From contig CBDEUS010000002.1 in NCBI GenBank assembly GCA_965243395.1, forward strand, positions 128,001 through 192,000: DNA of 64,000 nucleotides, given 5' to 3'. Source of the stretch: Gammaproteobacteria bacterium. GTDB lineage: Bacteria > Pseudomonadota > Gammaproteobacteria > UBA4575. The notes beneath the pieces are model-generated. The model was not told the origin of the DNA. It saw nothing but the letters and a program-made list of their open reading frames with translations, and made no database searches. Both the position numbers and the translations under genes were made by a program. Within the stretch, counting starts at the first letter, position 1; every line of letters begins with the position of its first letter. Below, piece by piece: positions 7,812 to 32,110 of the stretch.

Positions 7812-8594
7812 CTATACCCAAGTGCTATTCAAGGTATCCCTAAAATAGTTATTTAAACCCTCAGCTTCAGCCTCAGAGCTTTTTTGAGCAAATTTTGTGT
7901 CCTCTAATCGATTTAATTCAGATTCAATAAACTCATTTAGTACTGTAATCTTTTCTGAAGTATCTTTCTCAAATCCAGATTTTTTTCGCTCTAGCAAGTT
8001 ATTTATGGCACTAAGAAGCTTATTGTCATCAACTAACTTTTCTATTAGTTTGGAAAATTCAGTGGGCACCACGCCATAATCATTTTCTATCCATTGCACT
8101 GCTAATAATGGGCGAAGAACATAAAAATATTTTTTTAAACGAACTTGTTCTTTCTGCAAATGCTCTTTATATGTTCTTTTAGCCATACTTAAATAATGAT
8201 AGGCGCATGAAACTGGTGAAAAACTTTTTGGGAGTAAGTTTTGAAACCCATCAGAAAATTTTTCCTTATCTTTATAGACAATAGGAGACCCTATCCACTC
8301 AATCAAAGGTGGATTAGATTTTCGTAACAATCCGAGTGCCTTTCTCAGATCCCAACCATTTATATCAAGCAAATCATCTATAGGTAATTCGATCACATCT
8401 CTTTTGTGTTCAAGATCAATAGATAGATACCACTCAGGTGGATGTATATAAATAAAACGTACGTCAAAATCACTATCTTTAGATGCAAACCCCCACGCTC
8501 GACTACCCGATTCACAGGCATACAAAACTTGAACATTATATTCATCTTCAATTTCATCAAGCTTTTGAAGGATCTCTTCTTTTCTTTCTATCAT
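7812..8594 (-). CDS. RlaP/YcgL-type DNA polymerase beta superfamily nucleotidyltransferase (RNA-repair associated)
   Basis: YACESGSRAWGFASKDSDFDVRFIY, GWDLRKAL, KKYFYVLRP. Confidence 0.9.
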   Translation of the reverse strand: MIERKEEILQKLDEIEDEYNVQVLYACESGSRAWGFASKDSDFDVRFIYIHPPEWYLSIDLEHKRDVIELPIDDLLDINGWDLRKALGLLRKSNPPLIEWIGSPIVYKDKEKFSDGFQNLLPKSFSPVSCAYHYLSMAKRTYKEHLQKEQVRLKKYFYVLRPLLAVQWIENDYGVVPTEFSKLIEKLVDDNKLLSAINNLLERKKSGFEKDTSEKITVLNEFIESELNRLEDTKFAQKSSEAEAEGLNNYFRDTLNSTWV

Positions 8595-8602
8595 AGGTAT
8601 AT

Positions 8603-8902
8603 CTAGAAAAAAGTTTTAACAGTTAAAACTATTCCTAAGATTGGTAGCAATAAAAGCCAAATAATAAATATAGTGGCAATTAATATATTAGCTAAATACG
8701 AAGACTCCACTCCTTCGTCTTCCCAATCTTCATCTGCACAAATTACAGATACAAAATCTGAATTAAACTCAACATTAGAATGTTTATTATCAATTGCGAT
8801 ATCAATCGCATCTTTTAGTAACATTAAACCATCCTTATTGCCTGCAATATTATCTTCATATCTTTCACTGTAAATTTTTACCCAAGCTGTTTCATTATAC
8901 AT
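8603..8902 (-). CDS. small hypothetical protein with C-terminal TM helix
   Basis: 99-aa ORF tightly packed between rtcB and the nucleotidyltransferase. Confidence 0.6.
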   Translation of the reverse strand: MYNETAWVKIYSERYEDNIAGNKDGLMLLKDAIDIAIDNKHSNVEFNSDFVSVICADEDWEDEGVESSYLANILIATIFIIWLLLLPILGIVLTVKTFF

Positions 8903-8916
8903 TCAACTACTCCTAA

Positions 8917-10113
8917 CTATCCTTTTACACATACAACTTGACGCAAAGTGTGTTCAACGCTTACTAAATCATTTTGGTTTTCCATCACCACATCAATATC
9001 TTTATATGCGCCAGGAATTTCATCTAACACACCTTTGTCTTTACGACATTCAACACCAGCCGTTTGCGCTTCAATATCTTCTTCATTGAAATGGCGTTTT
9101 GCTTTACCACGACTCATACGTCGACCTGCACCATGCGAACATGAACTAAATGATTCAGGGTTACCTTTGCCACGAACAATGTAAGATTTAGCGCCCATAC
9201 TACCCGGAATAATTCCAAGCTCATCCACACCAGCACGAATCGCACCTTTGCGTGTAATGTAAACATTTTCACCAAAATGGTTTTCCATAGACACATAATT
9301 ATGATGACAATTGATGGCTTCTTTAGTGATACCAAATTTCGGTAACACTTTTTTTAATGCATCAATTATCAAGCGCATCATTTCTTTGCGATTTTCCATT
9401 GCGTAATCTTGAGCCCAGTTCACTGCATTTACATAGTCATCAAAGTGCTCTGCCCCTTCAGTAAAATATGCTAAATCTTTATCTGGCAAATTATGAATAT
9501 GCTTTTGCATATCTTTTTGTGCTAATCGAATAAAGAATTGGCCAATAATATTCCCTACTCCACGGCTACCCGAATGAAGCATAATCCATACATCATTATT
9601 TTCATCTAAACAGATTTCAATAAAATGATTCCCACCACCAAGTGTGCCTAGTTGACGCACCCAAGTTTGATAAGGCTTTTTCTGCATCTTTAAAAGTTTG
9701 GGGTGTTTTTCTAGTAAGCGATCTAAACCGTCAGATAAAGGTCGTATAGTTGAATTGCGAGCTTTATCTGACTTATGCATATCAAAACCAACAGGTATTG
9801 CAACTTCAATAGCAGTACGCACTTTGCGTAAGTTATCTGGAAGATCATTAGCATTCATTGAAAGACGCAAAGCATTCATTCCACAACCAATGTCTACACC
9901 AACCGCAGCAGGAATAATTGCACCTTTACATGGAATTACCGAACCCACAGTCGCACCTTTACCAAAGTGCACATCCGGCATCGCCGCAATATGACTATGG
10001 ATAAAAGGCAACTGTGATAGGTTGCATAGTTGCTGGTAGGCTTCGTGCTCTATGTCATCAGTATAGATTTTTACTCGCACATTACCTTTGGTAATGACTT
10101 TTTTAATTGGCAT
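8917..10113 (-). CDS. rtcB: RtcB RNA ligase
   Basis: MPDVHFGKGATVG, VGVDIGCG, GTLGGGNHFIE, HSGSRG, PGSMG, SHGAGR. Confidence 0.97.
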   Translation of the reverse strand: MPIKKVITKGNVRVKIYTDDIEHEAYQQLCNLSQLPFIHSHIAAMPDVHFGKGATVGSVIPCKGAIIPAAVGVDIGCGMNALRLSMNANDLPDNLRKVRTAIEVAIPVGFDMHKSDKARNSTIRPLSDGLDRLLEKHPKLLKMQKKPYQTWVRQLGTLGGGNHFIEICLDENNDVWIMLHSGSRGVGNIIGQFFIRLAQKDMQKHIHNLPDKDLAYFTEGAEHFDDYVNAVNWAQDYAMENRKEMMRLIIDALKKVLPKFGITKEAINCHHNYVSMENHFGENVYITRKGAIRAGVDELGIIPGSMGAKSYIVRGKGNPESFSSCSHGAGRRMSRGKAKRHFNEEDIEAQTAGVECRKDKGVLDEIPGAYKDIDVVMENQNDLVSVEHTLRQVVCVKG

Positions 10114-10125
10114 ATGTCACCCTAA

Positions 10126-10367
10126 TTAATCTCTAAAATATTCATTTCTATTAGAACCATCATGTCGCTTTTTCTTCAAGCAACAATTCTTGAAATCTAC
10201 GCCCTGATCCACATACACATGGATCATTCCGGCCGAACTTCTCGCTAAGTTCTTTATTGCCATGAACGATTCTATTTCCTCGTTTAACGTTTGTTTCTGA
10301 TGGGAATCCTTTACGACGTTTACTCATACGCTCAAAAGGATTGATCCTTATTTTTAAATTTACACAT
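10126..10367 (-). CDS. small SEC-C (Zn-knuckle) protein split over three frames by two apparent +1 frameshifts
   Basis: Not in the ORF track. SD GAGGTG precedes ATG 10367. [11 protein letters not shown] ends at TTT-TGA; the +1 frame reads [14 protein letters not shown]...[14 protein letters not shown]; a second +1 at TTT-C gives [21 protein letters not shown]. Confidence 0.75.
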
Positions 10368-10393
10368 GTTGCACCTCACATTACTAAACTAAA

Positions 10394-10780
10394 TCAGTTG
10401 TATTTTTTGCGATAGTTACTGGTAAAAGGTTGCGCAACAATTTGATAATCATCTTGATAGCGTATCCTTCCAATTTCCTCACATTTAATCATATCTACAG
10501 CAATACCTTTATTTTGTATTACAGAAAAGAGCTTCCACATAACGCGTATATGCTCTTGTGCACTAGGTTTAAACCAACACAGGCAGCGATAGTTACCGGG
10601 TATCTTCAAAATAGGAGGCACAATTAAATTTCTATCAATCCATCTAAACACATATTGAACTTCTTCATATTCATAATCAGTGAATGAATTGTTGTATTTT
10701 AGCTTGTACGCAAGATGTATTAGGCCTTGTTCATAACGTGACCTCCTGTCTTGGCACAGCCCAATAAATCGTAAGTACAT
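10394..10780 (-). CDS. hypothetical protein
   Basis: 128-aa ORF co-oriented within the RNA-repair module. Confidence 0.65.
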   Translation of the reverse strand: MYLRFIGLCQDRRSRYEQGLIHLAYKLKYNNSFTDYEYEEVQYVFRWIDRNLIVPPILKIPGNYRCLCWFKPSAQEHIRVMWKLFSVIQNKGIAVDMIKCEEIGRIRYQDDYQIVAQPFTSNYRKKYN

Positions 10781-10826
10781 TTTTAATATCCATTTATATT
10801 ATTTCTCAAATTTAATTAAATGACGC

Positions 10827-10850
10827 AGGCCCTCAAATAATAGAGGGCCT
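10827..10850. terminator. GC-rich hairpin downstream of the SPFH gene
   Basis: AGGCCCTC-N8-GAGGGCCT. No clear U tract on the minus strand, so it may be a stabilising stem. Confidence 0.45.
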
Positions 10851-10869
10851 TTGTCAGTTTATACTCACG

Positions 10870-12018
10870 CTACCCATCAACTTTGATTTGTACCGTGTCT
10901 TTTAGGATGCCATCCAAACCTCCGAAGACAGTTAGTTTGTCTACTTTGTCAGTGACTTTTTCCAACGTCTCCAACTCTTTCAAGCGCATCAAGGTTGGGT
11001 TGTCATCCATCAATTTCGCAGTGTTCAACAATGAACGTGTAGCTGCAGTTTCTTCACGTCTTTTAATGACATTTGCTTGCGCCACTTTTTCTGCTTGAAC
11101 TACTTGGTTCAAGATATCTTTCATGTCGCCTGGCAAAATGACATCTTTCACGCCAACGCTGCGAATTTCGATACCGTATTCAGATACGTTTGCTTTAACA
11201 GATTCGTAGACGTATTTGTCTAGTTCATCTTTAGTTACAAGCAATGCATCCAAAGTGCGTGTACCAATTACCTGACGAAGTGCAAATTGCATTTCGCGGT
11301 AAATGTATCCAGCAAGGTCTACCAATTCATGACGCGCTTTAATTGGGTCACGAATTTGATATTGAGCTGACAAGTTTGCACGTAGGCTAACTTTGTCTTT
11401 TGTCAAAACCTCTTGACCTTGCACTTCCATGCTTTGCATTCGCAAATCAACTTGTTCAACTATTACGTTGCGGTTGTATTTCCAGTATGCGTACAAGCCT
11501 GGTTGCAATGATTCTTTTAATTCACCATCCACAACCAATAGGCCAACATAGTTGTCTGCAACTTCTGCGATGTAAATTGAATTAATCAATTCACTTGGTA
11601 CTTGTTTCGCACGTGTGTGCACAAACTGACCCACTTTATTTGCAGGCAATGCAAAATCTTCTGCAATATTTTGCACTTCAACTGTCATTTCAACTGGACC
11701 TTTCCAAAATAATTGGCGTGTACCAGGTGCTACAACAGTGCTCAATTGGCCACGTTGATAAACCAATCCAACTTCATATGCGTCGGTTTCAACAACTTGG
11801 AAGTATTTTGTTACTATCTCAGGTTGTTCTTTTACCAAGACATCCACATATTTGTGGTTGAATTGCGCTTCCGTTACATCATAAATCTCGACTTGAATTC
11901 GGCCGAAAATATCGAAATATCGATATACGCCTGGTTCAAGCACTTTTACAATGCTTCGGTTTTTCAAGTAAATTCCTCGCTCATGCTGCGCAATAACAAT
12001 TCTTTTAAATCCGAACAT
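10870..12018 (-). CDS. SPFH/band-7 (slipin) family protein
   Basis: VDLRMQSMEVQGQEVLTKDKVSLRAN, GVKDVILPG, RREETAATRSLLNTAKLM; SD AAGGAG. Confidence 0.9.
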   Translation of the reverse strand: MFGFKRIVIAQHERGIYLKNRSIVKVLEPGVYRYFDIFGRIQVEIYDVTEAQFNHKYVDVLVKEQPEIVTKYFQVVETDAYEVGLVYQRGQLSTVVAPGTRQLFWKGPVEMTVEVQNIAEDFALPANKVGQFVHTRAKQVPSELINSIYIAEVADNYVGLLVVDGELKESLQPGLYAYWKYNRNVIVEQVDLRMQSMEVQGQEVLTKDKVSLRANLSAQYQIRDPIKARHELVDLAGYIYREMQFALRQVIGTRTLDALLVTKDELDKYVYESVKANVSEYGIEIRSVGVKDVILPGDMKDILNQVVQAEKVAQANVIKRREETAATRSLLNTAKLMDDNPTLMRLKELETLEKVTDKVDKLTVFGGLDGILKDTVQIKVDG

Positions 12019-12044
12019 AATTACTCCTTATTAAATAAAGTTTC

Positions 12045-12610
12045 GGGAAATGCTCCACATATAAATTGCGGGTAAACTCCTGTTGTAGTAACGGGTCTAA
12101 AATCTTTCGCATGTCATTGCGATACCCCAACTATCGCTTTGAACATGTTTCAGTCTCTAGACTGGTTATCACAAGCTTGTGATCACGCAGGCAATCTACA
12201 TGTTGCGACATAAAAAACTCTCAACCGTAGTTGAGCTATTTGAAATGTCGCGGGAACATTTCCCTGGTTAGTGTTTTCACACAAAATGCGGATTCGAACC
12301 GCAGGCTTTCGCCATTACCAATGAACAACGTTTAAAGTTGTCGAAAGAACAGGAATCGAACCTGCAACATTTCCGTTATCAGCGGAATGCTCTCCCTTTG
12401 AGCTATCTTTCACTGGTGTATCGGACCACTTACAACTTTGTATACACATTGCAATCACCTTTCGGCTTAGCTTTTGTGCACAGGTCTGAATTCAAGAATC
12501 AGATCCGCTAAGTAAATAAATGTCTCTCAATACTCATGAACTCAATGTTTATAAAACATCGAATTACAATTCTTTAAATACAGGTGACCTGCCCCATTGC
12601 AGGCCACCAT
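12045..12610 (-). ncRNA. unassigned large structured RNA (~570 nt) with tRNA-like domains
   Basis: ORF-free on the sense strand. 12-bp long-range helix 12253-12264/12045-12056, GNRA hairpins, two TTCGA T-arms. Ends approximate. Confidence 0.7.
12338..12412 (-). tRNA. tRNA-Ile(GAU)-like domain embedded in the structured RNA; ends in ACAA, not NCCA
   Basis: TGAAAGA TA GCTC AAAGGGA GAGC A TTCCG CTGATAA CGGAA ATGTT GCAGG TTCGATT CCTGT TCTTTCG A CAA. Confidence 0.7.
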
Positions 12611-12636: not shown

Positions 12637-13203
12637 TTAACGTCGCTCTTTAGGACATTGTGTTTTCAAGAACGCCATTTGGTCTGCCAAAATTTTGCGG
12701 TTAGATAAAATCAATCCTTCTGCATAATTTGGCTCATATGGAATTCCTAATAATGAAATTCCTATTCTTTCTGCCTCACTAGGCATTAAGCTATCTTTAC
12801 GTGCATTACATGCACGGCATGCTGTAACCACATTCATCCATGTGTTTTTCCCACCACGTGATAGTGGAATCACATGATCGCGCGTTAAGCGATTTCGAGA
12901 ATATTGATCACCGCAATACATGCACATGTAATCATCACGTCGAAACAATCTTGCATTTGTCAGTGCAGGCACTTCACGAATGTGGTCGTCTGATCGCATC
13001 ACACCATGTGTTGCAACAATACTGTTCACATCAATAAATGAACGAGTTCTTGTTCTGCGATTTACACCACCATGAATACGAAAAGAATTTGAACCCATTT
13101 CGTAAACAACTTGTTCTCGTGCATACACTAATGCTGCATATTCCCAGTTCATCCATTCAACTGGACGCCCAGCTACGTCTAAACGCAAAATTAAATTTTC
13201 CAT
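12637..13203 (-). CDS. HNH endonuclease (McrA/HNH_5-like)
   Basis: LFRRDDYMCMYCG...TRDHVIPLSRGG...NVVTACRACNARK. Confidence 0.92.
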   Translation of the reverse strand: MENLILRLDVAGRPVEWMNWEYAALVYAREQVVYEMGSNSFRIHGGVNRRTRTRSFIDVNSIVATHGVMRSDDHIREVPALTNARLFRRDDYMCMYCGDQYSRNRLTRDHVIPLSRGGKNTWMNVVTACRACNARKDSLMPSEAERIGISLLGIPYEPNYAEGLILSNRKILADQMAFLKTQCPKERR

Positions 13204-13231
13204 TTAACTTTTCTCTTTTATAAAGTTACTG

Positions 13232-13254
13232 TTTAACAATTTGGATGATTGAAG
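13232..13254. repeat. trailer arm of a 23-bp perfect inverted repeat bracketing the tRNA array
   Basis: TTTAACAATTTGGATGATTGAAG is the exact reverse complement of 16565-16587. Confidence 0.92.
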
Positions 13255-13263
13255 AGTTTAATT

Positions 13264-13340
13264 TGGTACGCAGCCCCAGATTTGAACTGGGAATCAAGTA
13301 GGTTTGAGCTACTCAGGTCTTCCAATTGCCTCAGCTGCGC
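13264..13340 (-). tRNA. tRNA-Leu(CAA), short variable loop
   Basis: Hand-folded cloverleaf, loop CT CAA AC, 5-nt V loop, A73, encoded CCA. Confidence 0.88.
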
Positions 13341-13352
13341 AAAAATTTAATT

Positions 13353-13429
13353 TGGTATCCCTGGCAAGATTCGAACTTGCAACATTCTGGTTTTAAGTCA
13401 GATGCGTCTTCCGGTTGCGCCACAGGGAC
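13353..13429 (-). tRNA. tRNA-Leu(UAA), short variable loop
   Basis: Loop CT TAA AA, V loop ATGTT, CCA. Confidence 0.88.
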
Positions 13430-13440
13430 GTAATGTAATT

Positions 13441-13518
13441 TGGTAGCCACCCTCGGATTTGAACCGAGATGCACCATGTTCTAAGCATGGTAGGTATGCC
13501 AATTCCCGTCAGATGGCC
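13441..13518 (-). tRNA. tRNA-Leu(UAG), short variable loop
   Basis: Loop CT TAG AA, V loop TGCAT, CCA. Confidence 0.88.
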
Positions 13519-13561
13519 AAAATTTTTATTTTTATAATTTAGTTATACATAAATTATGATT

Positions 13562-13637
13562 TGGTACCCCTAGTAAGATTCGAACTCACATCAACTGATT
13601 TAGAAGATCAGTGCTTTTCCAATTAAGCTATAGAGGT
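13562..13637 (-). tRNA. tRNA-Arg(UCU)
   Basis: Loop CT TCT AA, CCA. Confidence 0.92.
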
Positions 13638-13659
13638 AAAAAACTAATTGAATTATTTT

Positions 13660-13756
13660 TGGTACCCCAACCAAGATTCGAACTTGGATCTACCACTAAT
13701 CTGGTGCGTGAATCACGGGATATAAATCCGCTGCTTTACCGTTAAGCTATTGGGGC
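13660..13756 (-). tRNA. tRNA-Ile(UAU) with a 27-nt variable region
   Basis: Loop TT TAT AT; V region GATTCACGCACCAGATTAGTGGTAGAT; CCA. Confidence 0.85.
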
Positions 13757-13765
13757 AAAATTTTT

Positions 13766-13839
13766 TGGACACTCCGCTCAGAATTGAACTGAGTCCTCAA
13801 GGGTTGCAACCTTGCGTCTTGCCGATCGACCACGGAGTG
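13766..13839 (-). tRNA. tRNA-Cys(GCA)
   Basis: Loop TT GCA AC, U73, CCA. Confidence 0.9.
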
Positions 13840-13840
13840 T

Positions 13841-13915
13841 TGGCACATCCGGAAAGATTTGAACTTTCATCTTTGGGTTTGGAGGCCAATGTTCTGCCAA
13901 TTGAACTACAGATGC
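13841..13915 (-). tRNA. tRNA-Trp(CCA)
   Basis: Loop CT CCA AA, G73, CCA. Confidence 0.9.
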
Positions 13916-13917
13916 TC

Positions 13918-13993
13918 TGGCTGGGAGTCCTGGACTCGAACCAAGATCTCAAGAGTCAAAGTCTTGCGTCTTAACCAGTTAGACGAATTCCCA
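13918..13993 (-). tRNA. tRNA-Gln(UUG)
   Basis: Loop CT TTG AC, U1-A72, G73, CCA. Confidence 0.92.
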
Positions 13994-14002
13994 TTTTTGT
14001 TT

Positions 14003-14079
14003 TGGCGCGGTTGGAAAGACTCAAACTTTCATCTTCGACTTTCGTAGAGTCGTGCTTTATCCGATTAAGCTACAACCGC
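14003..14079 (-). tRNA. tRNA-Arg(ACG)
   Basis: Loop CT ACG AA; T loop TTTGAGT; CCA. Confidence 0.9.
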
Positions 14080-14087
14080 AAAAACTT

Positions 14088-14163
14088 TGGTAGCCCGAAT
14101 CCGATTCGAACGGATAACTTTCGCTTTGTAAGAACGACACTCTGCCAATTGAGTTATCGGGCT
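14088..14163 (-). tRNA. tRNA-Val(UAC)
   Basis: Loop CT TAC AA, CCA. Confidence 0.92.
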
Positions 14164-14171
14164 AAAATTTT

Positions 14172-14243
14172 TGGTAGTTACGGTTAGAATCGAACTAACA
14201 AGTCCAGGGTTATGAGCCCTAGCCGAAGACCACTTCCGTAACT
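14172..14243 (-). tRNA. tRNA-Met(CAU), initiator-like, with a minimal D arm
   Basis: AGTTACG GAAG TGGT CTTC GG CTAGGG CTCATAA CCCTGG ACTT GTTAG TTCGATT CTAAC CGTAACT A CCA. Confidence 0.8.
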
Positions 14244-14251
14244 AAAGTATT

Positions 14252-14325
14252 TGGTGGATCCAGTAGGAGTCGAACCTACCTCTGCGGGTTAAAAGCCCGC
14301 TGCACAACCGCTATGCCATAGATCC
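14252..14325 (-). tRNA. tRNA-Lys(UUU)
   Basis: Loop CT TTT AA, CCA. Confidence 0.9.
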
Positions 14326-14326
14326 T

Positions 14327-14402
14327 TGGCACGCCTGAAAGGAGTTGAACCTTTATCTCACTGGTTCGAAGCCAGTGGCTCTTCCAATTAAGCTACAGAC
14401 GT
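14327..14402 (-). tRNA. tRNA-Arg(UCG)
   Basis: Loop CT TCG AA, CCA. Confidence 0.9.
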
Positions 14403-14404
14403 AT

Positions 14405-14495
14405 TGGCGGAGAAGAACAGATTCGAACTGTTGAATGAAAAATTTCCATCCCTCCTTTAGCAAAGGAGTGCTTTAAACCACTCAGCCACTTCTCC
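14405..14495 (-). tRNA. tRNA-Ser(GCU)
   Basis: Loop TT GCT AA, long V arm, G73, CCA. Confidence 0.92.
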
Positions 14496-14555
14496 AATTT
14501 ATAATTTGCAGCGCTTCGCGATATTTAATTTGCGAGTAATACCCACTCGCAAGCG

Positions 14556-14631
14556 TGGGGTGAACTACCGGACTCGAACCGGTATCTACCAGATTCACGT
14601 TCTGGGGCTTTGCCATTAAGCTAAGCTCACC
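14556..14631 (-). tRNA. tRNA-His(GUG), with A32/C33
   Basis: G-1:C73 pair; loop AC GTG AA; CCA. Confidence 0.9.
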
Positions 14632-14642
14632 ATAATTATTTT

Positions 14643-14734
14643 TGGCGGAAGGCGGAGGGCACGATCCCCACCAACTAAAAAGCCAGCCACCAGTTTTCAA
14701 GACTGGGACACCCCCACTGGGTGAATCACCTTCC
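14643..14734 (-). tRNA. tRNA-Ser(UGA) with a non-canonical 8/4 fold
   Basis: Acceptor GGAAGGTG/CGCCTTCC (8 bp), T stem GGGG/CCTC (4 bp), D stem CACCC/GGGTG, loop CT TGA AA, long V arm, G73. Confidence 0.8.
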
Positions 14735-14749
14735 TTATATATGTAAATT

Positions 14750-14824
14750 TGGAGCGGATAATCGGATTCGAACCGATATTTATGGTTTGGAAGACCATCA
14801 CTCTGCCAATTGAGTTATACCCGC
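14750..14824 (-). tRNA. tRNA-Gly(UCC)
   Basis: Loop CT TCC AA, U73, CCA. Confidence 0.92.
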
Positions 14825-14829
14825 AGATT

Positions 14830-14907
14830 TGGTCTGAGTGGCTGGATTCGAACCAACGACCTCTCGCTTCCAAGGCGAGTACTCTGCCCAGGCTGAGCTA
14901 CACTCAG
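14830..14907 (-). tRNA. tRNA-Pro(UGG)
   Basis: Loop CT TGG AA, C1-G72, CCA. Confidence 0.92.
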
Positions 14908-14934
14908 AGAATTAATTAAATATAAAAAATTATT

Positions 14935-15010
14935 TGGTGCATCGAGTTGGACTTGAACCAACGACCACACGATTATCGGTCGTGCGCTCTACCAACTGAG
15001 CTATCGATGC
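14935..15010 (-). tRNA. tRNA-Ile(GAU), with C33
   Basis: Loop CC GAT AA, CCA. Confidence 0.9.
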
Positions 15011-15011
15011 T

Positions 15012-15086
15012 TGGTGTTCCTGACCAGAATTGAACTGGCATCTCGAGTTTGAAAGACTCGTGACCTCACCATTAGTCGACAGGAAC
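15012..15086 (-). tRNA. tRNA-Glu(UUC)
   Basis: Loop CT TTC AA, CCA. Confidence 0.9.
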
Positions 15087-15100
15087 TAATAAAATATTTT

Positions 15101-15176
15101 TGGCGGACCCGATCGGACTCAAACCGACATCCCCTTTATCGACAGTAAAGTGCTTTATCAATTAAGCTACGAATCC
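15101..15176 (-). tRNA. tRNA-Asp(GUC)
   Basis: Loop CT GTC GA, G73; D-loop GA with T-loop TTTGA (A19-U56 compensation). Confidence 0.88.
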
Positions 15177-15185
15177 AACTTTTGT

Positions 15186-16047
15186 TTAAAGGTTGAGACT
15201 ATGCCTTTAAAAATCACTCTTTTGTTGAAGTACCTAACGCATTGCTGTGCGATAGTTGCCAACGTGTCCACATTACCCTGGTTGCTCCAGCGATTATGTT
15301 AGTGATCATGACTGCTTTTTTTAAAGTGTAGCGATTCACTTGTCGCGTTAATCTATTCAGCTATTCACTTACCGAGAACCTTGCCAGGCTCTAAACGGAG
15401 GCTATCCGAACGTGCAATGAAGTAACTAAAGTTCTTTGGCTTGCGACCGCAGAATCTTCCATGTTCCCAAGTGGGCATGGACTTAAGTCATTTTCAATTA
15501 ACACCGAGACGCGTCTTTGCGTTTCACCGTATGGTGATCTATGTGGGAGTCGAACCCACGACCTATTGATTCTAAGTCAATCGCTCTACCAATCTGAGCT
15601 AAAAGATCAGGTACTACTAAGACGTGCACGTCTCAGTTGCTTCATTATTTTTTGAATAACGAAATACAACACGCCTTTTGTCTTTCCTCTGCCGAGTACT
15701 TAACCGAATATTCGGATCATGGCTTCCACCCATTTCCCTAATAATCTGCACAACCGCACTTGTCTGCAAAACTCGTACTATGTTGTACTACCTGTTATCT
15801 CTCGTAGTACGCAATCTAGTATCACGGGTTACAGCACTACCTGTATCTTTCTCACGACCCGTATTCCCAAGTAAACCTGGTACGTCAATCGTGGTACTTC
15901 CGCGTATTGCTTGGCTACTATTGCCGATTGAATTACGACAACATGGAGACCAGGCTTGCTTGGTTTGACCTACTTTGAAAAGTGGGCGAAATACCGTAGT
16001 CGTATTCCTTTCCTATCGTTGCCGATAGTTATCGTGCCAAGCCACAT
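15186..16047 (-). ncRNA. large structured RNA, probably GOLLD
   Basis: About 860 nt inside a tRNA array with no sense ORF and many hairpins (CTATCG GCAA CGATAG; CCGAATATTCGG; GTACTAC...GTAGTAC). Size and context match GOLLD. Family call from memory; ends approximate. Confidence 0.65.
15532..15608 (-). tRNA. tRNA with Leu(UAG) anticodon on a class-I body, nested in the GOLLD-like RNA
   Basis: GATCTTT TA GCTC AGATTGGTA GAGC G ATTGA CTTAGAA TCAAT AGGTC GTGGG TTCGACT CCCAC ATAGATC A CCA. Confidence 0.85.
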
Positions 16048-16050
16048 ATT

Positions 16051-16126
16051 TGGTGGAGGATCACGGATTTGAACCGTGCGCCTTCTGTTTGCAATACAGA
16101 CGCTCTGCCAACTGAGCTAATCCCCC
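16051..16126 (-). tRNA. tRNA-Ala(UGC)
   Basis: G3:U70, loop AT TGC AA, CCA. Confidence 0.93.
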
Positions 16127-16135
16127 AAACTTATT

Positions 16136-16210
16136 TGGCTGCGACGGTTGGACTCGAACCAACATTGCTTCGCTTAACAGACGAATGTTCTACCATTGAA
16201 CTACATCGCA
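16136..16210 (-). tRNA. tRNA-Asn(GUU)
   Basis: Loop CT GTT AA, G73, CCA. Confidence 0.92.
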
Positions 16211-16218
16211 ATTATATT

Positions 16219-16295
16219 TGGTGCATCAGGATGGATTCGAACCACCATCGCGTCGGGCTTCAACCGACCGCTCTACCCATTGGAGCTACCGATGC
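16219..16295 (-). tRNA. tRNA-Phe(GAA)
   Basis: Loop TT GAA GC, CCA. Confidence 0.92.
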
Positions 16296-16304
16296 AAAAA
16301 TAAT

Positions 16305-16389
16305 TGGTGGAGAGAGATGGATTCGAACCACCACGCTAATAATTAGCACTGGGTTACAGCCAGCGTGTCTCACCAATGACTGTCTCTCC
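16305..16389 (-). tRNA. tRNA-Tyr(GUA)
   Basis: Loop CT GTA AC, V arm GCTAATTATTAGC, CCA. Confidence 0.88.
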
Positions 16390-16401
16390 TAAAGTTAAAA
16401 C

Positions 16402-16477
16402 TGGAGCTGGTGATAGGCGTCGAACCTACAACCTACTGCTTACAAAGCAGTTGCTCTGCCATTTGAGCTACACCAGC
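16402..16477 (-). tRNA. tRNA-Thr(UGU), first tRNA of the array
   Basis: Loop TT TGT AA, CCA. Confidence 0.93.
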
Positions 16478-16564
16478 AAAAAATATGGGACAGTCGCACA
16501 TGCGCACAACTCAACTTAGGAGTTGGGCATAATTTAAAAATTAAATTACGCACTGCCCCGCCTA

Positions 16565-16592
16565 CTTCAATCATCCAAATTGTTAAAGAGCT
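16565..16592 (-). promoter_or_regulatory. boxA antitermination element overlapping the leader arm of the 23-bp inverted repeat
   Basis: AGCTCTTTAACA at 16592-16581 versus rrn boxA TGCTCTTTAACA; IR arm at 16565-16587. Confidence 0.85.
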
Positions 16593-16604
16593 ACTGCCAG
16601 GACT

Positions 16605-16639
16605 AAAAAACCCCGGAAGGCGAACCTAACCGGGGTTTT
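16605..16639 (-). terminator. intrinsic terminator (attenuator) between the promoter and the tRNA array
   Basis: AAAACCCCGG TT AGG TTCG CCT T CCGGGGTTTT TT. Confidence 0.88.
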
Positions 16640-16693
16640 ATTTTGATTCCGGAAGGCTCGCAACGCGCACCCTCCGAATTAATTTGGAAGGTA

Positions 16694-16849
16694 CTACGTA
16701 ATTGGGTCCTCTAAGGTGGCCCCAATAAAATTATTTGTGCCGAGATTCGATATCTCATGCACAGCAACACACCACAAAAAACACGACGGCTTTAATAACC
16801 GCTGCATTAGTTGCGCTGAAAAACTAGTTGTATATGTACTTCTATTCAT
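16694..16849 (-). CDS. putative leader peptide (51 aa, near-leaderless)
   Basis: Below the ORF-track cut-off. MNRSTYTTSFSAQLMQRLLKPSCFLWCVAVHEISNLGTNNFIGATLEDPIT*. ATG is 10 nt after the -10 box and the stop abuts attenuator segment 1. Confidence 0.65.
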   Translation of the reverse strand: MNRSTYTTSFSAQLMQRLLKPSCFLWCVAVHEISNLGTNNFIGATLEDPIT

Positions 16850-16887
16850 AGTGCGCGAAAGTCTAATGATATGGATTTTAAAGTCAA
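16850..16887 (-). promoter_or_regulatory. stable-RNA-type sigma70 promoter of the tRNA array
   Basis: TTGACT (16887-16882), 16 bp, TAGACT (16865-16860), then GC-rich discriminator TTCGCGCAC. Confidence 0.75.
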
Positions 16888-16937: not shown

Positions 16938-17591
16938 TTAATCCTCAAGGGCTGACAAAAAAGAAATCATTGCTTTACGTTGTTTTTCATTTAAAGAGAG
17001 TGATGCAGAAATTATTTCTTGAATGTCCGTTAATTGTTTTTGAAATTCTTTATTGTTCAATTCTTTAGGTGCTTCATCCAACCAACCTACTGGTTTTTTT
17101 GCTGCAACTTCAATTCCTCTTGCAAACTCATCACTCATGCTTGGAATAAATGGTGTTTTGTAATGTTGTTGAAATAATTCCCATGATACTCCTGCTGATT
17201 CACATTCTTTTTTAGAACAAACCTTATTACCAGACTTTCCACATAGGGTCTTAAAGTTTGTAAATCTAACGATTTGAAGAAATGGGTCTAAGTTTTTTAC
17301 AGGAGCAGTGCCAAATAATAACCAATTGGTGGAATATCCAGTAACTTTGCTAATACCTTCAATGATTTTTAAATTTGGGTTTTGTGGAGCCGACGTTTCG
17401 TAAAGAGAAAGAAGTTGTTTTGACACCTTTAGTCTTCTTTTTTTCAATAATTGCATCATCTCACTTGGATCAATGCCATTAACTACACGTGCAAAACGCA
17501 CCCTTGATGAAACTGTAGCTAATTCATTTTTTCGTTTTGAACTACTAGTTGATTTTTTGGAGACACGACGTTTAGATTTATTTTTTACCAT
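16938..17591 (-). CDS. XRE/Cro-CI-type HTH protein with a basic N-terminal tail
   Basis: SRVRFAR...VSKQLLSLYET...NPNLKIIEGISKVTGYSTNWLLFG. Confidence 0.7.
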   Translation of the reverse strand: MVKNKSKRRVSKKSTSSSKRKNELATVSSRVRFARVVNGIDPSEMMQLLKKRRLKVSKQLLSLYETSAPQNPNLKIIEGISKVTGYSTNWLLFGTAPVKNLDPFLQIVRFTNFKTLCGKSGNKVCSKKECESAGVSWELFQQHYKTPFIPSMSDEFARGIEVAAKKPVGWLDEAPKELNNKEFQKQLTDIQEIISASLSLNEKQRKAMISFLSALED

Positions 17592-26904: not shown

Positions 26905-27088
26905 CCTGCTTCATAACTGTAGATACTCGTGCACGTTTCGTGTTTAATAGTAATTAAATCTTACACTTAAAACGTTTAATTAATTTTAAACGTGTCTAAT
27001 CGTAGCACGAAATCTTCCACCAAATGGTATGAAAAAAGTGCAAGGGTGGTGCAAAGTTCGCTACGAGGATTTTTTGGAGGATGACCAT

Positions 27089-28324
27089 ATGAGTAAACAT
27101 CAAATCCACTTAACCAAACACGATGTACAAAACTATCCACGACCCGAACAAGGAATGCTTCGATTGTGGGACAGCGAGATTGAAGGTTTGTATGTTTTAA
27201 TTCCAGCTGCAGGAAAACGAACCGCATACTTTCGTTATCGCATTCAAGGACGCCAACGTGATTTTCGCATTGGTCGCATCGATCGTCTGAGCTTGAAGGC
27301 AATACGTGATGAAGCCAAAAAGTGCGCCGCGAGAGTCGAGCTTGGCCAAGACATACAAGAAGCCAGAAATGCAGCTAAGCTTGCGCTACGTGAAGCCAAA
27401 AATAATCAAGGTGCGCCCAATCTCCAATTGTTTGGAGACTTCTATCAACACTATTACATCGATTATGCAAAAGCGACACTGAAAGATTATCGAAAACGTC
27501 TACGAGCCATCGAATTTAACTTTTCACAATGGTTTGATAAACGTTTAGATGAAATCAATGTGCCGTTAGTGGCTAGTTGGCGTAATCACAAACTGGCAAC
27601 ACCTGTTACAGTAGGCAAAGGCGACAATCAAAAACAACGTGAACGTACTACCGGCGCGATCAATCGACCGGTTGGCTATTTGAAAGCGCTACTCTCCGTT
27701 GCTTATGAAGAAGCGGAGCTTTTGGATCATCACCCTCTTGATCGACTCAAACCTTTGAAAGAACCTCGACACAAGCGTGATCGGTTCTTAACCAATGAAG
27801 AATTTAAACGTTTACGTAATAGTTTGCGCGGACGTGATGATTATCTACCGGTTTTAATAGAACTGGGTATTAACACAGGTTTGCGTTTGAATGAGATGCT
27901 CACCTTAGAATGGGGATCAGTTGATTTACGTAATCAGACGCTGACGGTGGAAAGTCATTACGCCAAAAGCAAACGCAAGCGAACCGTTCCACTCAATAAT
28001 TCGATTACCGCAGTCATACGTGATTGGAAACTTCGTACTCAACGCTTTGGTCCATGGGTATTCACCAATCCGAATACCGATAATCACTACGTCTCCATTT
28101 ACCGCGCATGGAATACAGCGATGCAAGAAGCCGGCATTGAAAACTTCGTGCGTCATGATTTACGCCGTACCTTTGGCAGTTGGCTCGCCGAACGCGGTGA
28201 GAGCATTTATGTGATTAAGAATTTACTCGGACACTCCAGTGTGAAAGTCACCGAAGAAAGTTATGCGTATCTACAAGACAAATCTCAACGCGATGCGGTA
28301 GAACGCCTTGAAGCGATCGCATAG
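27089..28324 (+). CDS. tyrosine integrase with N-terminal arm-binding domain
   Basis: LWDSEIEGL arm domain; TGLR, HDLRR, LGH, catalytic Y. Start chosen after SD GGAGG. Confidence 0.93.
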   Translation: MSKHQIHLTKHDVQNYPRPEQGMLRLWDSEIEGLYVLIPAAGKRTAYFRYRIQGRQRDFRIGRIDRLSLKAIRDEAKKCAARVELGQDIQEARNAAKLALREAKNNQGAPNLQLFGDFYQHYYIDYAKATLKDYRKRLRAIEFNFSQWFDKRLDEINVPLVASWRNHKLATPVTVGKGDNQKQRERTTGAINRPVGYLKALLSVAYEEAELLDHHPLDRLKPLKEPRHKRDRFLTNEEFKRLRNSLRGRDDYLPVLIELGINTGLRLNEMLTLEWGSVDLRNQTLTVESHYAKSKRKRTVPLNNSITAVIRDWKLRTQRFGPWVFTNPNTDNHYVSIYRAWNTAMQEAGIENFVRHDLRRTFGSWLAERGESIYVIKNLLGHSSVKVTEESYAYLQDKSQRDAVERLEAIA

Positions 28325-32035: not shown

Positions 32036-32110
32036 TGGAGGCCAGGGTCGGAGTTGAACCGACGTATTACACCTTGCTGGGGGTATGCATCACCACTCTG
32101 CCACCTGGCC
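32036..32110 (-). pseudogene. tRNA-Cys-like element with an aberrant anticodon arm
   Basis: GGCCAGG TG GCA GAGTGGTGA TGC ATACC CCCAGCAA GGTGT AATAC GTCGG TTCAACT CCGAC CCTGGCC T CCA. Confidence 0.75.

Follow-up and report, generated by a model that had tools for sequence, protein, structure and literature searches.

The window analysed here, 64,000 nt in length (positions 128,001 to 192,000 of contig CBDEUS010000002.1, assembly GCA_965243395.1, from a gammaproteobacterium of the UBA4575 lineage), carries a dense array of tRNA genes together with a GOLLD RNA, bounded on either side by one arm of a long inverted repeat and followed by a gene for an HNH endonuclease. The RNA sense is the minus strand throughout the array and, because all array tRNAs lie on that strand, the arm at 16595-16565 is the leader arm and the one at 13254-13224 the trailer arm. 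We consider it likely that the two arms are the strands of a long-range RNA helix within a single minus-strand transcript, forming a boxA-containing frame around the tRNA/GOLLD array in the style of a ribosomal RNA (rrn) operon. The features on which this proposal rests are the following:

12637-13203, minus strand: HNH endonuclease gene (Pfam HNH_5 at 1.7e-16), with its ATG 20 nt after the trailer arm.
13224-13254, minus strand: trailer (3′) arm, complementary to boxA and the following 15 nt (repeat search, duplex energy; a homologous motif lies directly upstream of HNH in relatives).
13264-16477, minus strand: looped-out cargo, 24 tRNAs called by ARAGORN plus one tRNA match found by Rfam only.
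15177-16050, minus strand: GOLLD RNA (Rfam 3′ domain at 15190-15677; the entire tRNA-free gap is taken as the gene).
16565-16595, minus strand: leader (5′) arm (repeat search, duplex energy, covariation with the trailer).
16580-16591, minus strand: boxA (GCTCTTTAACAA), putative Nus-factor loading signal on the nascent RNA (unique exact copy, conserved).

A repeat search delimited the arms as an inverted repeat of 31 nt (13224-13254 and 16565-16595) with 90% complementarity and 3310 nt between them, within which a perfect 23-nt core (13232-13254 and 16565-16587) was read directly from the sequence. Written as minus-strand RNA, the 31 positions give 29 pairs (28 Watson-Crick and one G.U) and two single mismatches (A.A and C.C). 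The second-best inverted repeat between positions 12000 and 18000 has 30 nt at only 70%, and when this interval was shuffled 200 times the longest perfect inverted repeat obtained was 20 nt (mean 13.1, local palindromes counted), compared with the 23 nt observed. Searching the 2,578,523-base genome for the 23-mer with up to three mismatches returned just two sites, the arms themselves, and a reversed control pattern returned none. The RNA duplex energy of the arms was calculated as -38.4 kcal/mol, against -11.4 ± 2.8 kcal/mol (minimum -21.1) for 300 shuffled trailers. As to their placement, the leader arm stands 88 nt upstream of tRNA-Thr (16477), and the trailer arm begins 9 nt past tRNA-Leu(caa) (13264) and stops 20 nt short of the HNH start codon. 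The boxA at 16591-16580 is the sole exact copy of GCTCTTTAACAA in the genome, agrees at 12 of 13 positions with the Escherichia coli rrn boxA consensus, and in homologous leaders is either invariant or different at no more than two positions. The initial annotation of this stretch, made from its letters, had described a perfect 23-bp repeat extending imperfectly to about 31 bp, and both lengths are borne out; it had also placed most of boxA in the leader arm, and the 31-nt arm contains all 12 bases.

That annotation further held that the repeat loops out the whole 3.3-kb tRNA array, a description that needs amending. The arms do flank the first and the last looped tRNA, but one tRNA-Ile (12340-12412) is located outside the loop, downstream of HNH. 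The loop contains the 24 ARAGORN tRNAs and the further Rfam match, all co-oriented on the minus strand within 3.2 kb, but it also holds the GOLLD RNA, which was missing from the earlier account, as were the promoter, small open reading frame (ORF) and attenuator-like element that we describe below upstream of boxA. GOLLD was recognized through RF02032 at 15190-15677 (minus strand; 153.5 bits, the gathering score being 150, with the full model matched, positions 1-416 of 416), and the 874-nt tRNA-free gap at 15177-16050 is probably the complete GOLLD gene; a tRNA-Leu(tag) is nested within it at 15532-15608. Contigs from two marine metatranscriptome runs (RNA libraries) matched 15204-16012 with one to three differences. 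Over the remaining array, RNA contigs gave just two poorly matching, tRNA-sized pieces of ∼55 nt and covered neither arm, although contigs cannot show absence. The enclosed RNA thus comprises tRNAs and GOLLD and no ribosomal RNA; its arms would work like an rrn helix, yet the unit is not an rrn operon. The tRNA missing from the ARAGORN calls is a 94-nt Rfam match at 13663-13756 (minus strand, 55.3 bits), which may contain an insertion or an unusual arm.

Homologous arrays were collected in two rounds. Scanning an HNH protein alignment against one genome per species gave 80 loci, three of them with tRNAs upstream of the gene. One of these, L118 (L-numbers denote fetched loci), lies on a Woeseiaceae contig, encodes an HNH protein 56% identical to that of the window and has its tRNAs in the order seen there (Thr, Phe, Asn, Ala ... 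Arg, Gln, Trp, Cys ... Leu, Leu, Leu, HNH). L118 has an exact boxA, and its leader segment ACAATGTGGATTGTGTAGAC pairs at 20 of 20 positions (18 Watson-Crick, two G.U) with GTCTACACAATTCGCATTGT, located 5 nt past the last tRNA and 18 nt ahead of HNH. The L118 leader was then searched in the order of its genome, where it matched in 40 of 301 genomes, and 30 regions were fetched. In total 33 sequences were examined, namely these 30, L118, the genome of this stretch (G000) and a relative from another genus of the same family (G028). The homologous arrays repeat the tRNA order of G000 and its neighbours, with a 217-amino-acid protein (p217) on one side and HNH and RtcB on the other. Of the 33, 26 (25 of them distinct) have a boxA with a leader arm behind it and, farther on, a trailer arm that pairs with this leader arm; three had no boxA and four no convincing helix, two of the latter (L376 and L392) lying on cut contigs. 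In most of the 26 the trailer lies within ∼13 nt of the last detected tRNA, and in several (for example L373, L382 and L377) it lies 0.4-6.8 kb beyond; HNH follows it directly in 23 of the 26. Between the arms lie 0.7 to 12.5 kb of DNA and one to 28 tRNAs, with or without SPFH and GOLLD, the latter being found in three of six related loci scanned and, as the same family, in G028. The cargo thus varies, and what stays constant is boxA plus leader arm at one end and trailer arm plus HNH at the other. The SPFH/Band 7 gene itself lies inside the loop, among the tRNAs, in 13 related loci (L118, at 7961-9052, and 12 others) and outside it in G000.

With boxA as the anchor for aligning the leaders, the partner of every leader position was recorded over 21 columns (+7 to +27), of which the 18 columns from +8 to +25 form the core; the four helix-less loci were excluded from the counts, and for each helix the register with the best score was chosen. 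Standard pairs occupied 93.5% of the 525 cells. When the partner was slid by one to three columns, 27-42% of the cells paired, and 500 column-wise shuffles gave 82.7 ± 0.8% pairing, none of them reaching the observed value. The initial annotation had proposed to look for compensatory changes between the arms of homologous arrays, and these are present: double changes that preserve the pair occurred in 13 of the 21 columns (56 cells), compared with 7.3 ± 1.4 columns in the shuffles, no shuffle arriving at 13. Leaving out G000 and G028, ten compensatory columns remained, a number reached by one of 500 shuffles. Column 12, for instance, has T-A in 16 loci and C-G in seven; column 13 has G-C in 18, A-T in three, T-A in two and C-G in one; column 22 has G-C in 20 and T-A in five; and column 24 has A-T in 18 and G-C in seven. 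Within the core, 441 of 450 cells pair: 420 are Watson-Crick and 21 are G.U, none is A.C, and nine are other combinations. A DNA repeat would give G.T and A.C alike, and the presence of G.U without A.C on the tRNA-sense strand therefore argues for an RNA helix formed by that strand. At the level of sequence comparison, these data show that the boxA region is connected with the gap between the last tRNA and HNH by a long-range pairing that is conserved, covarying and specific to one strand.

Other loci show how far the design extends. Among the 77 HNH loci of the one-genome-per-species scan that were tested, L118 alone had a boxA-linked helix; the other 76, which serve as a negative control and include L116 as well as L117 (on a contig without the leader), had no boxA-linked helix, and the array-less ones come mostly from Xanthomonadales and Burkholderiales. 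A metagenome scan with the HNH alignment returned 80 loci, eight of them with at least two tRNAs and all eight ending before the leader, so that only their trailers could be read; the trailer motif was directly upstream of HNH in most of the ten metagenome contigs that we read. In seven of 101 viral contigs carrying boxA plus five further bases of the G000 leader, a tRNA array begins 26-31 nt farther on, and in one of these, L058 (17 tRNAs), there is a perfect 17-nt downstream complement whose arm sequence is unrelated to that of G000. Four betaproteobacterial megaplasmids, found with the HNH protein, all present a boxA or near-boxA ahead of the array, and in Burkholderia plasmid pM7012 a perfect 14-bp helix, again with unrelated arms, runs from the last boxA bases to the position right after the last tRNA. 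The combination of boxA and closing helix is recurrent, not universal. Other searches among viruses were negative: the phage database held no near-identity match, and a distant search yielded only isolated matches of tRNA size, each of which covered 5% of the query or less; the exact 27-nt leader arm had no match in viral contigs; and the HNH protein found one viral locus (L014), which ends 1.1 kb upstream of the gene and has no tRNA or Rfam match. A trailer-type pattern hit 66 loci in viral contigs, none with three or more tRNAs, and these were set aside as chance matches.

Comparison with the resident ribosomal operon gave a close parallel. The host has one rrn operon, in whose leader a hairpin (with a U run) is followed by the boxA-like GTTTTTTAACAATTG. 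This leader (C2 1157232-1157275) pairs with the spacer between 16S and tRNA (1158961-1159005) in two adjoining segments, making a helix of ∼45 nt, the first segment of which contains the rrn boxA region. The island copies this resident design, including the position of boxA at the base of the helix, and the host encodes both RNase III (rnc) and NusB (nusB). What the array shares with bacterial rrn operons in general is a boxA on the transcribed strand after a hairpin and a covarying helix of at least 20 bp that runs from the leader to just behind the mature RNAs (PMC10250234, PMC11404451; statements on this and the other papers cited by PMC number refer to the available parts of their texts). 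It differs from them in enclosing tRNAs and GOLLD, and in relatives a protein gene too, rather than rRNA, and in being a horizontally acquired module with protein-coding genes behind it, for which cleavage and dependence on Nus factors would follow by analogy.

Upstream of boxA we found three further elements, all on the same strand:

16860-16887, minus strand: predicted sigma-70-like promoter, TTGACT-16 nt-TAGACT, from which the array transcript probably starts (consensus scan).
16694-16849, minus strand: small leader ORF of 51 amino acids, ending LEDPIT-stop (ORF list; begins 10 nt past the -10, read by hand in G000).
16605-16696, minus strand: attenuator-like leader with a hairpin CCTTCC...GGAGGG that includes the ORF stop codon, a second CCTTCC, a G+C hairpin and a U run (consensus and single-sequence folds).

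In an alignment of 12 leaders the -35 TTGAC is invariant and the -10 TA.AC invariant or nearly so. A scripted scan found equivalents of the leader ORF in 20 of 30 leaders, with 44-59 amino acids, a start 8-11 nt past the -10, a variable middle and conserved C-termini (SGEPMT, HGEPMR, GGEPIH); in the other ten, G000 among them, the script picked a wrong site or none. The ORFs found by the script end 105-116 nt before boxA (162 nt in one leader). In the consensus of the relatives, the ORF stop abuts a CCUUCC...GGAAGG hairpin, after which come a second CCUUCC, a G+C hairpin with a U run that may be boxB-like or terminator-like, 12-16 nt, and boxA; the pairs of this consensus structure are conserved and partly covarying. 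The G000 leader folds with z = -5.0, and in its centroid the terminator-like hairpin forms, with neither boxA nor the arm paired, whereas in the minimum-energy fold an alternative (anti-terminator) pairing sequesters the 5′ half of that hairpin. The leader looks like a leader-peptide attenuator, which could sense translation and gate the array. As a leader RNA family, ohsC was considered and rejected, its Rfam match being sub-threshold at a relaxed cut-off (21 bits against 50). Stand-alone elements made of a CCTTCC hairpin and a terminator, 71-79% identical to the leader, are found around position 1500 of four loci from congeners (L005-L008, in G002, G010, G007 and G012); they have no boxA or tRNAs, and no p217, HNH, SPFH or RtcB within 1.5 kb.

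Taking these elements together, the following course of events can be proposed. The conserved promoter would drive a leader with boxA, followed by 3.3 kb of untranslated cargo (∼25 tRNAs and GOLLD). On the rrn precedent, boxA would recruit NusB/NusE and their partners, and RNA polymerase would then resist Rho across the untranslated array. Once transcribed, the trailer would pair with boxA and the 15 nt after it, closing the cargo into a loop as the rrn 16S helix does. RNase III may then cut the helix of 23-29 bp and separate leader, tRNA/GOLLD precursor and downstream HNH-SPFH-RtcB mRNA, so that this cleavage would also give the HNH-...-RtcB mRNA its 5′ end; the tRNAs would be finished by RNase P, RNase E and exonucleases. 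By pairing with boxA the trailer may, in addition, dislodge the Nus factors, which would end antitermination at the border with the coding genes. The initial annotation had proposed that the array is transcribed and processed like an rrn operon: the boxA-led leader/trailer helix in that proposal is backed by conservation, compensatory change, the asymmetry between G.U and A.C and the likeness to the host rrn operon; the processing we infer from precedent. It had also floated ligation or circularisation by RtcB after cleavage. RNase III leaves a 5′-phosphate and a 3′-OH, and RtcB joins a 3′-phosphate or 2′,3′-cyclic phosphate to a 5′-OH; because the ends made by the one are mismatched with the substrates of the other, circularisation is chemically unlikely. 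RtcB more plausibly takes part in the repair of cleaved tRNAs, as the available text of PMC8421152 suggests.

Several observations weigh against the rrn-style helix and have to be set beside the evidence in its favour. Cutting by RNase III and even co-transcription of both arms are assumptions of the model, RNA contigs having been found only over the GOLLD part. The helix is not universal: L393 and L397, both full length, have boxA and an array and neither helix nor HNH, and a clear closing helix is present in only one of the seven boxA-led viral arrays and in one of the four betaproteobacterial plasmid arrays (pM7012). With a protein-coding SPFH gene inside it in many relatives, the loop is not strictly non-coding. 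The terminator-like hairpin stands between promoter and boxA, and read-through has to be assumed. Arms of the Woeseiaceae type each contain an internal palindrome, ACAAT-N4-ATTGT, and could form local hairpins or bind a dimeric protein. Finally, choosing the register by best score favours pairing over the slid controls, and the loci are related, so that the cells are not independent events.

The alternative that survives best accepts the helix as RNA but gives it another main task. The trailer would act chiefly as an 'anti-boxA' that strips NusB/NusE and resets the polymerase, or else the helix would protect the ends of the precursor or set the 5′ end or the translation of the HNH mRNA; we regard it as unlikely, though worth keeping in view, that such a function is the principal one. 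In its favour, the helix always takes in at least the last four bases of boxA, and all 12 in G000, and the trailer is tied to the HNH start whatever the size and composition of the cargo. Helices of 20-30 bp with few mismatches are nevertheless typical substrates of RNase III, an enzyme that the host encodes. The rRNA leader-trailer helices surveyed in PMC11404451, a study that in its available part concerns rRNA only, have a role that is independent of RNase III, which also lends this alternative some credit. The data fit both functions, and the two are not exclusive.

A second alternative is that the arms act as DNA, either as crossover sites for an invertase or another recombinase or as two copies of a protein-binding site that loop the DNA, and the evidence leaves it very little room. 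The perfect 23-bp identity would suit such a role, as would a tyrosine integrase gene at 27029-28324, two regulator-like genes nearby and the palindromic cores in the arms of relatives, and arms bound by one protein would co-vary as well. Against this, the 21 G.U and zero A.C cells of the core are expected only if the tRNA-sense strand pairs as RNA, and the leader arm shares sequence with boxA, a signal that acts in RNA of that very strand. DNA inversion, which the initial annotation had named as the alternative to its own proposal, finds no support: all 26 loci keep a single orientation with respect to p217 and HNH, and no inversion joint was seen in the contigs of a source-like run or in the contig of a relative, where rare variants could escape since contigs drop them. 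A transposon or miniature inverted-repeat transposable element is disfavoured by the presence of only two arm copies in the genome, by the lack of a target-site duplication beside the arms, whose flanks differ, and by the lack of a transposase inside. The remaining alternative, in which each arm works alone (the leader as boxA plus a local hairpin, the trailer as an element of the HNH 5′ untranslated region) and their complementarity is a by-product of the palindrome that both Woeseiaceae-type arms share and that does form a local hairpin in the consensus fold, is hardly tenable given that the palindrome is broken in several loci (ACAAC...ATTGT in L387, L388 and L390) with the inter-arm pair restored by a change in the other arm, that the 23-nt perfect match of G000 reaches well past any palindrome, and that the array-less HNH homologues among the 76 of 77 helix-negative loci have no such element.

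The rrn-style frame is embedded in a module of co-oriented genes, the remaining members of which are:

7812-12412, minus strand: downstream co-oriented genes (tRNA, Pfam and PHROG-type annotation; SPFH and RtcB homologues occur in the same module of relatives), comprising the next four entries.
12340-12412, minus strand: tRNA-Ile outside the loop (ARAGORN).
10870-12018, minus strand: SPFH/Band 7 gene, outside the loop, downstream of HNH.
8917-10113, minus strand: RtcB, downstream of an ORF of 128 amino acids.
7812-8594, minus strand: nucleotidyltransferase, the last of the downstream genes listed.
16938-17591, minus strand: p217, located 5′ of the promoter, with a C-terminal part that is retained upstream of homologous arrays.

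The products of 217, 128 and 51 amino acids matched no Pfam or NCBIfam family; p217 had only weak matches to PHROG regulators, and tblastn located it upstream of most related leaders. Further upstream lie an S15 peptidase, a helix-turn-helix protein and, 10 kb off, the tyrosine integrase gene mentioned above. GOLLD together with the array occurs in two of the 56 genomes of the family. In G028, from another genus, the same array is bounded by a 32-nt version of the repeat with arms identical to those of G000, although the spacer between trailer and last tRNA differs by ∼49 nt; the HNH proteins are 100% identical (window 12637-13203 against L011 8274-8840) and the arrays ∼94% identical in DNA. 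Such identity between genera indicates, as far as sequence comparison can tell, a recent horizontal transfer of the module, and in conjunction with the patchy distribution of GOLLD and the array it leads us to view the block as horizontally acquired. The unit belongs, as a proteobacterial representative, to the long tRNA arrays ('L-arrays') that spread horizontally and are linked to HNH and RtcB.

Related systems present some, not all, of these features. Mycobacterial tRNA arrays with GOLLD and HNH are reportedly the subject of Morgado et al. 2020, and Stringer et al. 2020 are said to have described boxA-mediated antitermination of CRISPR arrays. The latter are similar in that a boxA precedes a long untranslated array where Rho would otherwise terminate; they are not known to have a trailer complementary to boxA. 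L-arrays resemble the present unit in their dense, same-strand arrangement of ∼25 tRNAs, their patchy horizontal distribution and their HNH and RtcB neighbours (PMC8421152, PMC10272220). In Anabaena the likeness extends to the gene set, the TrcR regulon including the trn operon, rtcB, an HNH gene and a slipin/SPFH gene (PMC10272220), but regulation there proceeds through promoter repeats and the TrcR repressor (PMC8421152, PMC10272220), unlike the boxA, closing helix and leader ORF with attenuator-like fold described here. In Anabaena the trn operon stays silent until translational stress induces it (PMC8421152); the conserved leader ORF with its predicted attenuator-like fold is the sole pointer, a hint at most, to such behaviour in our array. 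The main text of PMC8421152 does not contain the terms 'stem', 'inverted repeat', 'boxA', 'antitermination' or 'RNase III', though its supplements may hold maps. Mycobacterial arrays likewise combine a tRNA array, a GOLLD RNA with a nested tRNA and HNH, in a different phylum, and neither a closing helix nor a boxA is described for them in the available part of PMC6582537. A search of the literature found no paper that connects tRNA arrays, clusters or operons with boxA or with a leader-trailer helix.

Long tRNA arrays travel with plasmids, phages and genomic islands and are thought to rescue translation under stress or in the presence of tRNA-cutting toxins. So far there has been no explanation of how an untranslated RNA of several kilobases avoids termination by Rho, or of what separates the precursor from the mRNAs of neighbouring genes. 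A covarying closing helix that contains boxA offers a concrete and testable answer, in which the arrays would borrow the antitermination and processing machinery of host rRNA. It also supplies a signature for the borders of such arrays (a boxA, and its complement just behind the last tRNA, ahead of HNH in the HNH-linked family), places GOLLD RNA as part of a looped precursor and, in the conserved leader ORF with its attenuator-like fold, points to a possible sensor that turns 'cryptic' arrays on. On a more speculative note, which we put forward tentatively, the mobile tRNA arrays of bacteria and phages may repeatedly have copied the full rrn logic: boxA would load the Nus complex and hold the leader at the polymerase, the 'anti-boxA' trailer would both close the loop for RNase III and switch antitermination off before HNH and RtcB, and the gate formed by the small, near-leaderless ORF and the attenuator would sense failing translation, making of the array an emergency translation kit turned on by ribosome stalling.

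Outside the array, ARAGORN called one additional tRNA in the window at 32036-32110 (minus strand), of undetermined type and with a four-base anticodon (cagc), which the Rfam tRNA model also matched with 45.9 bits.

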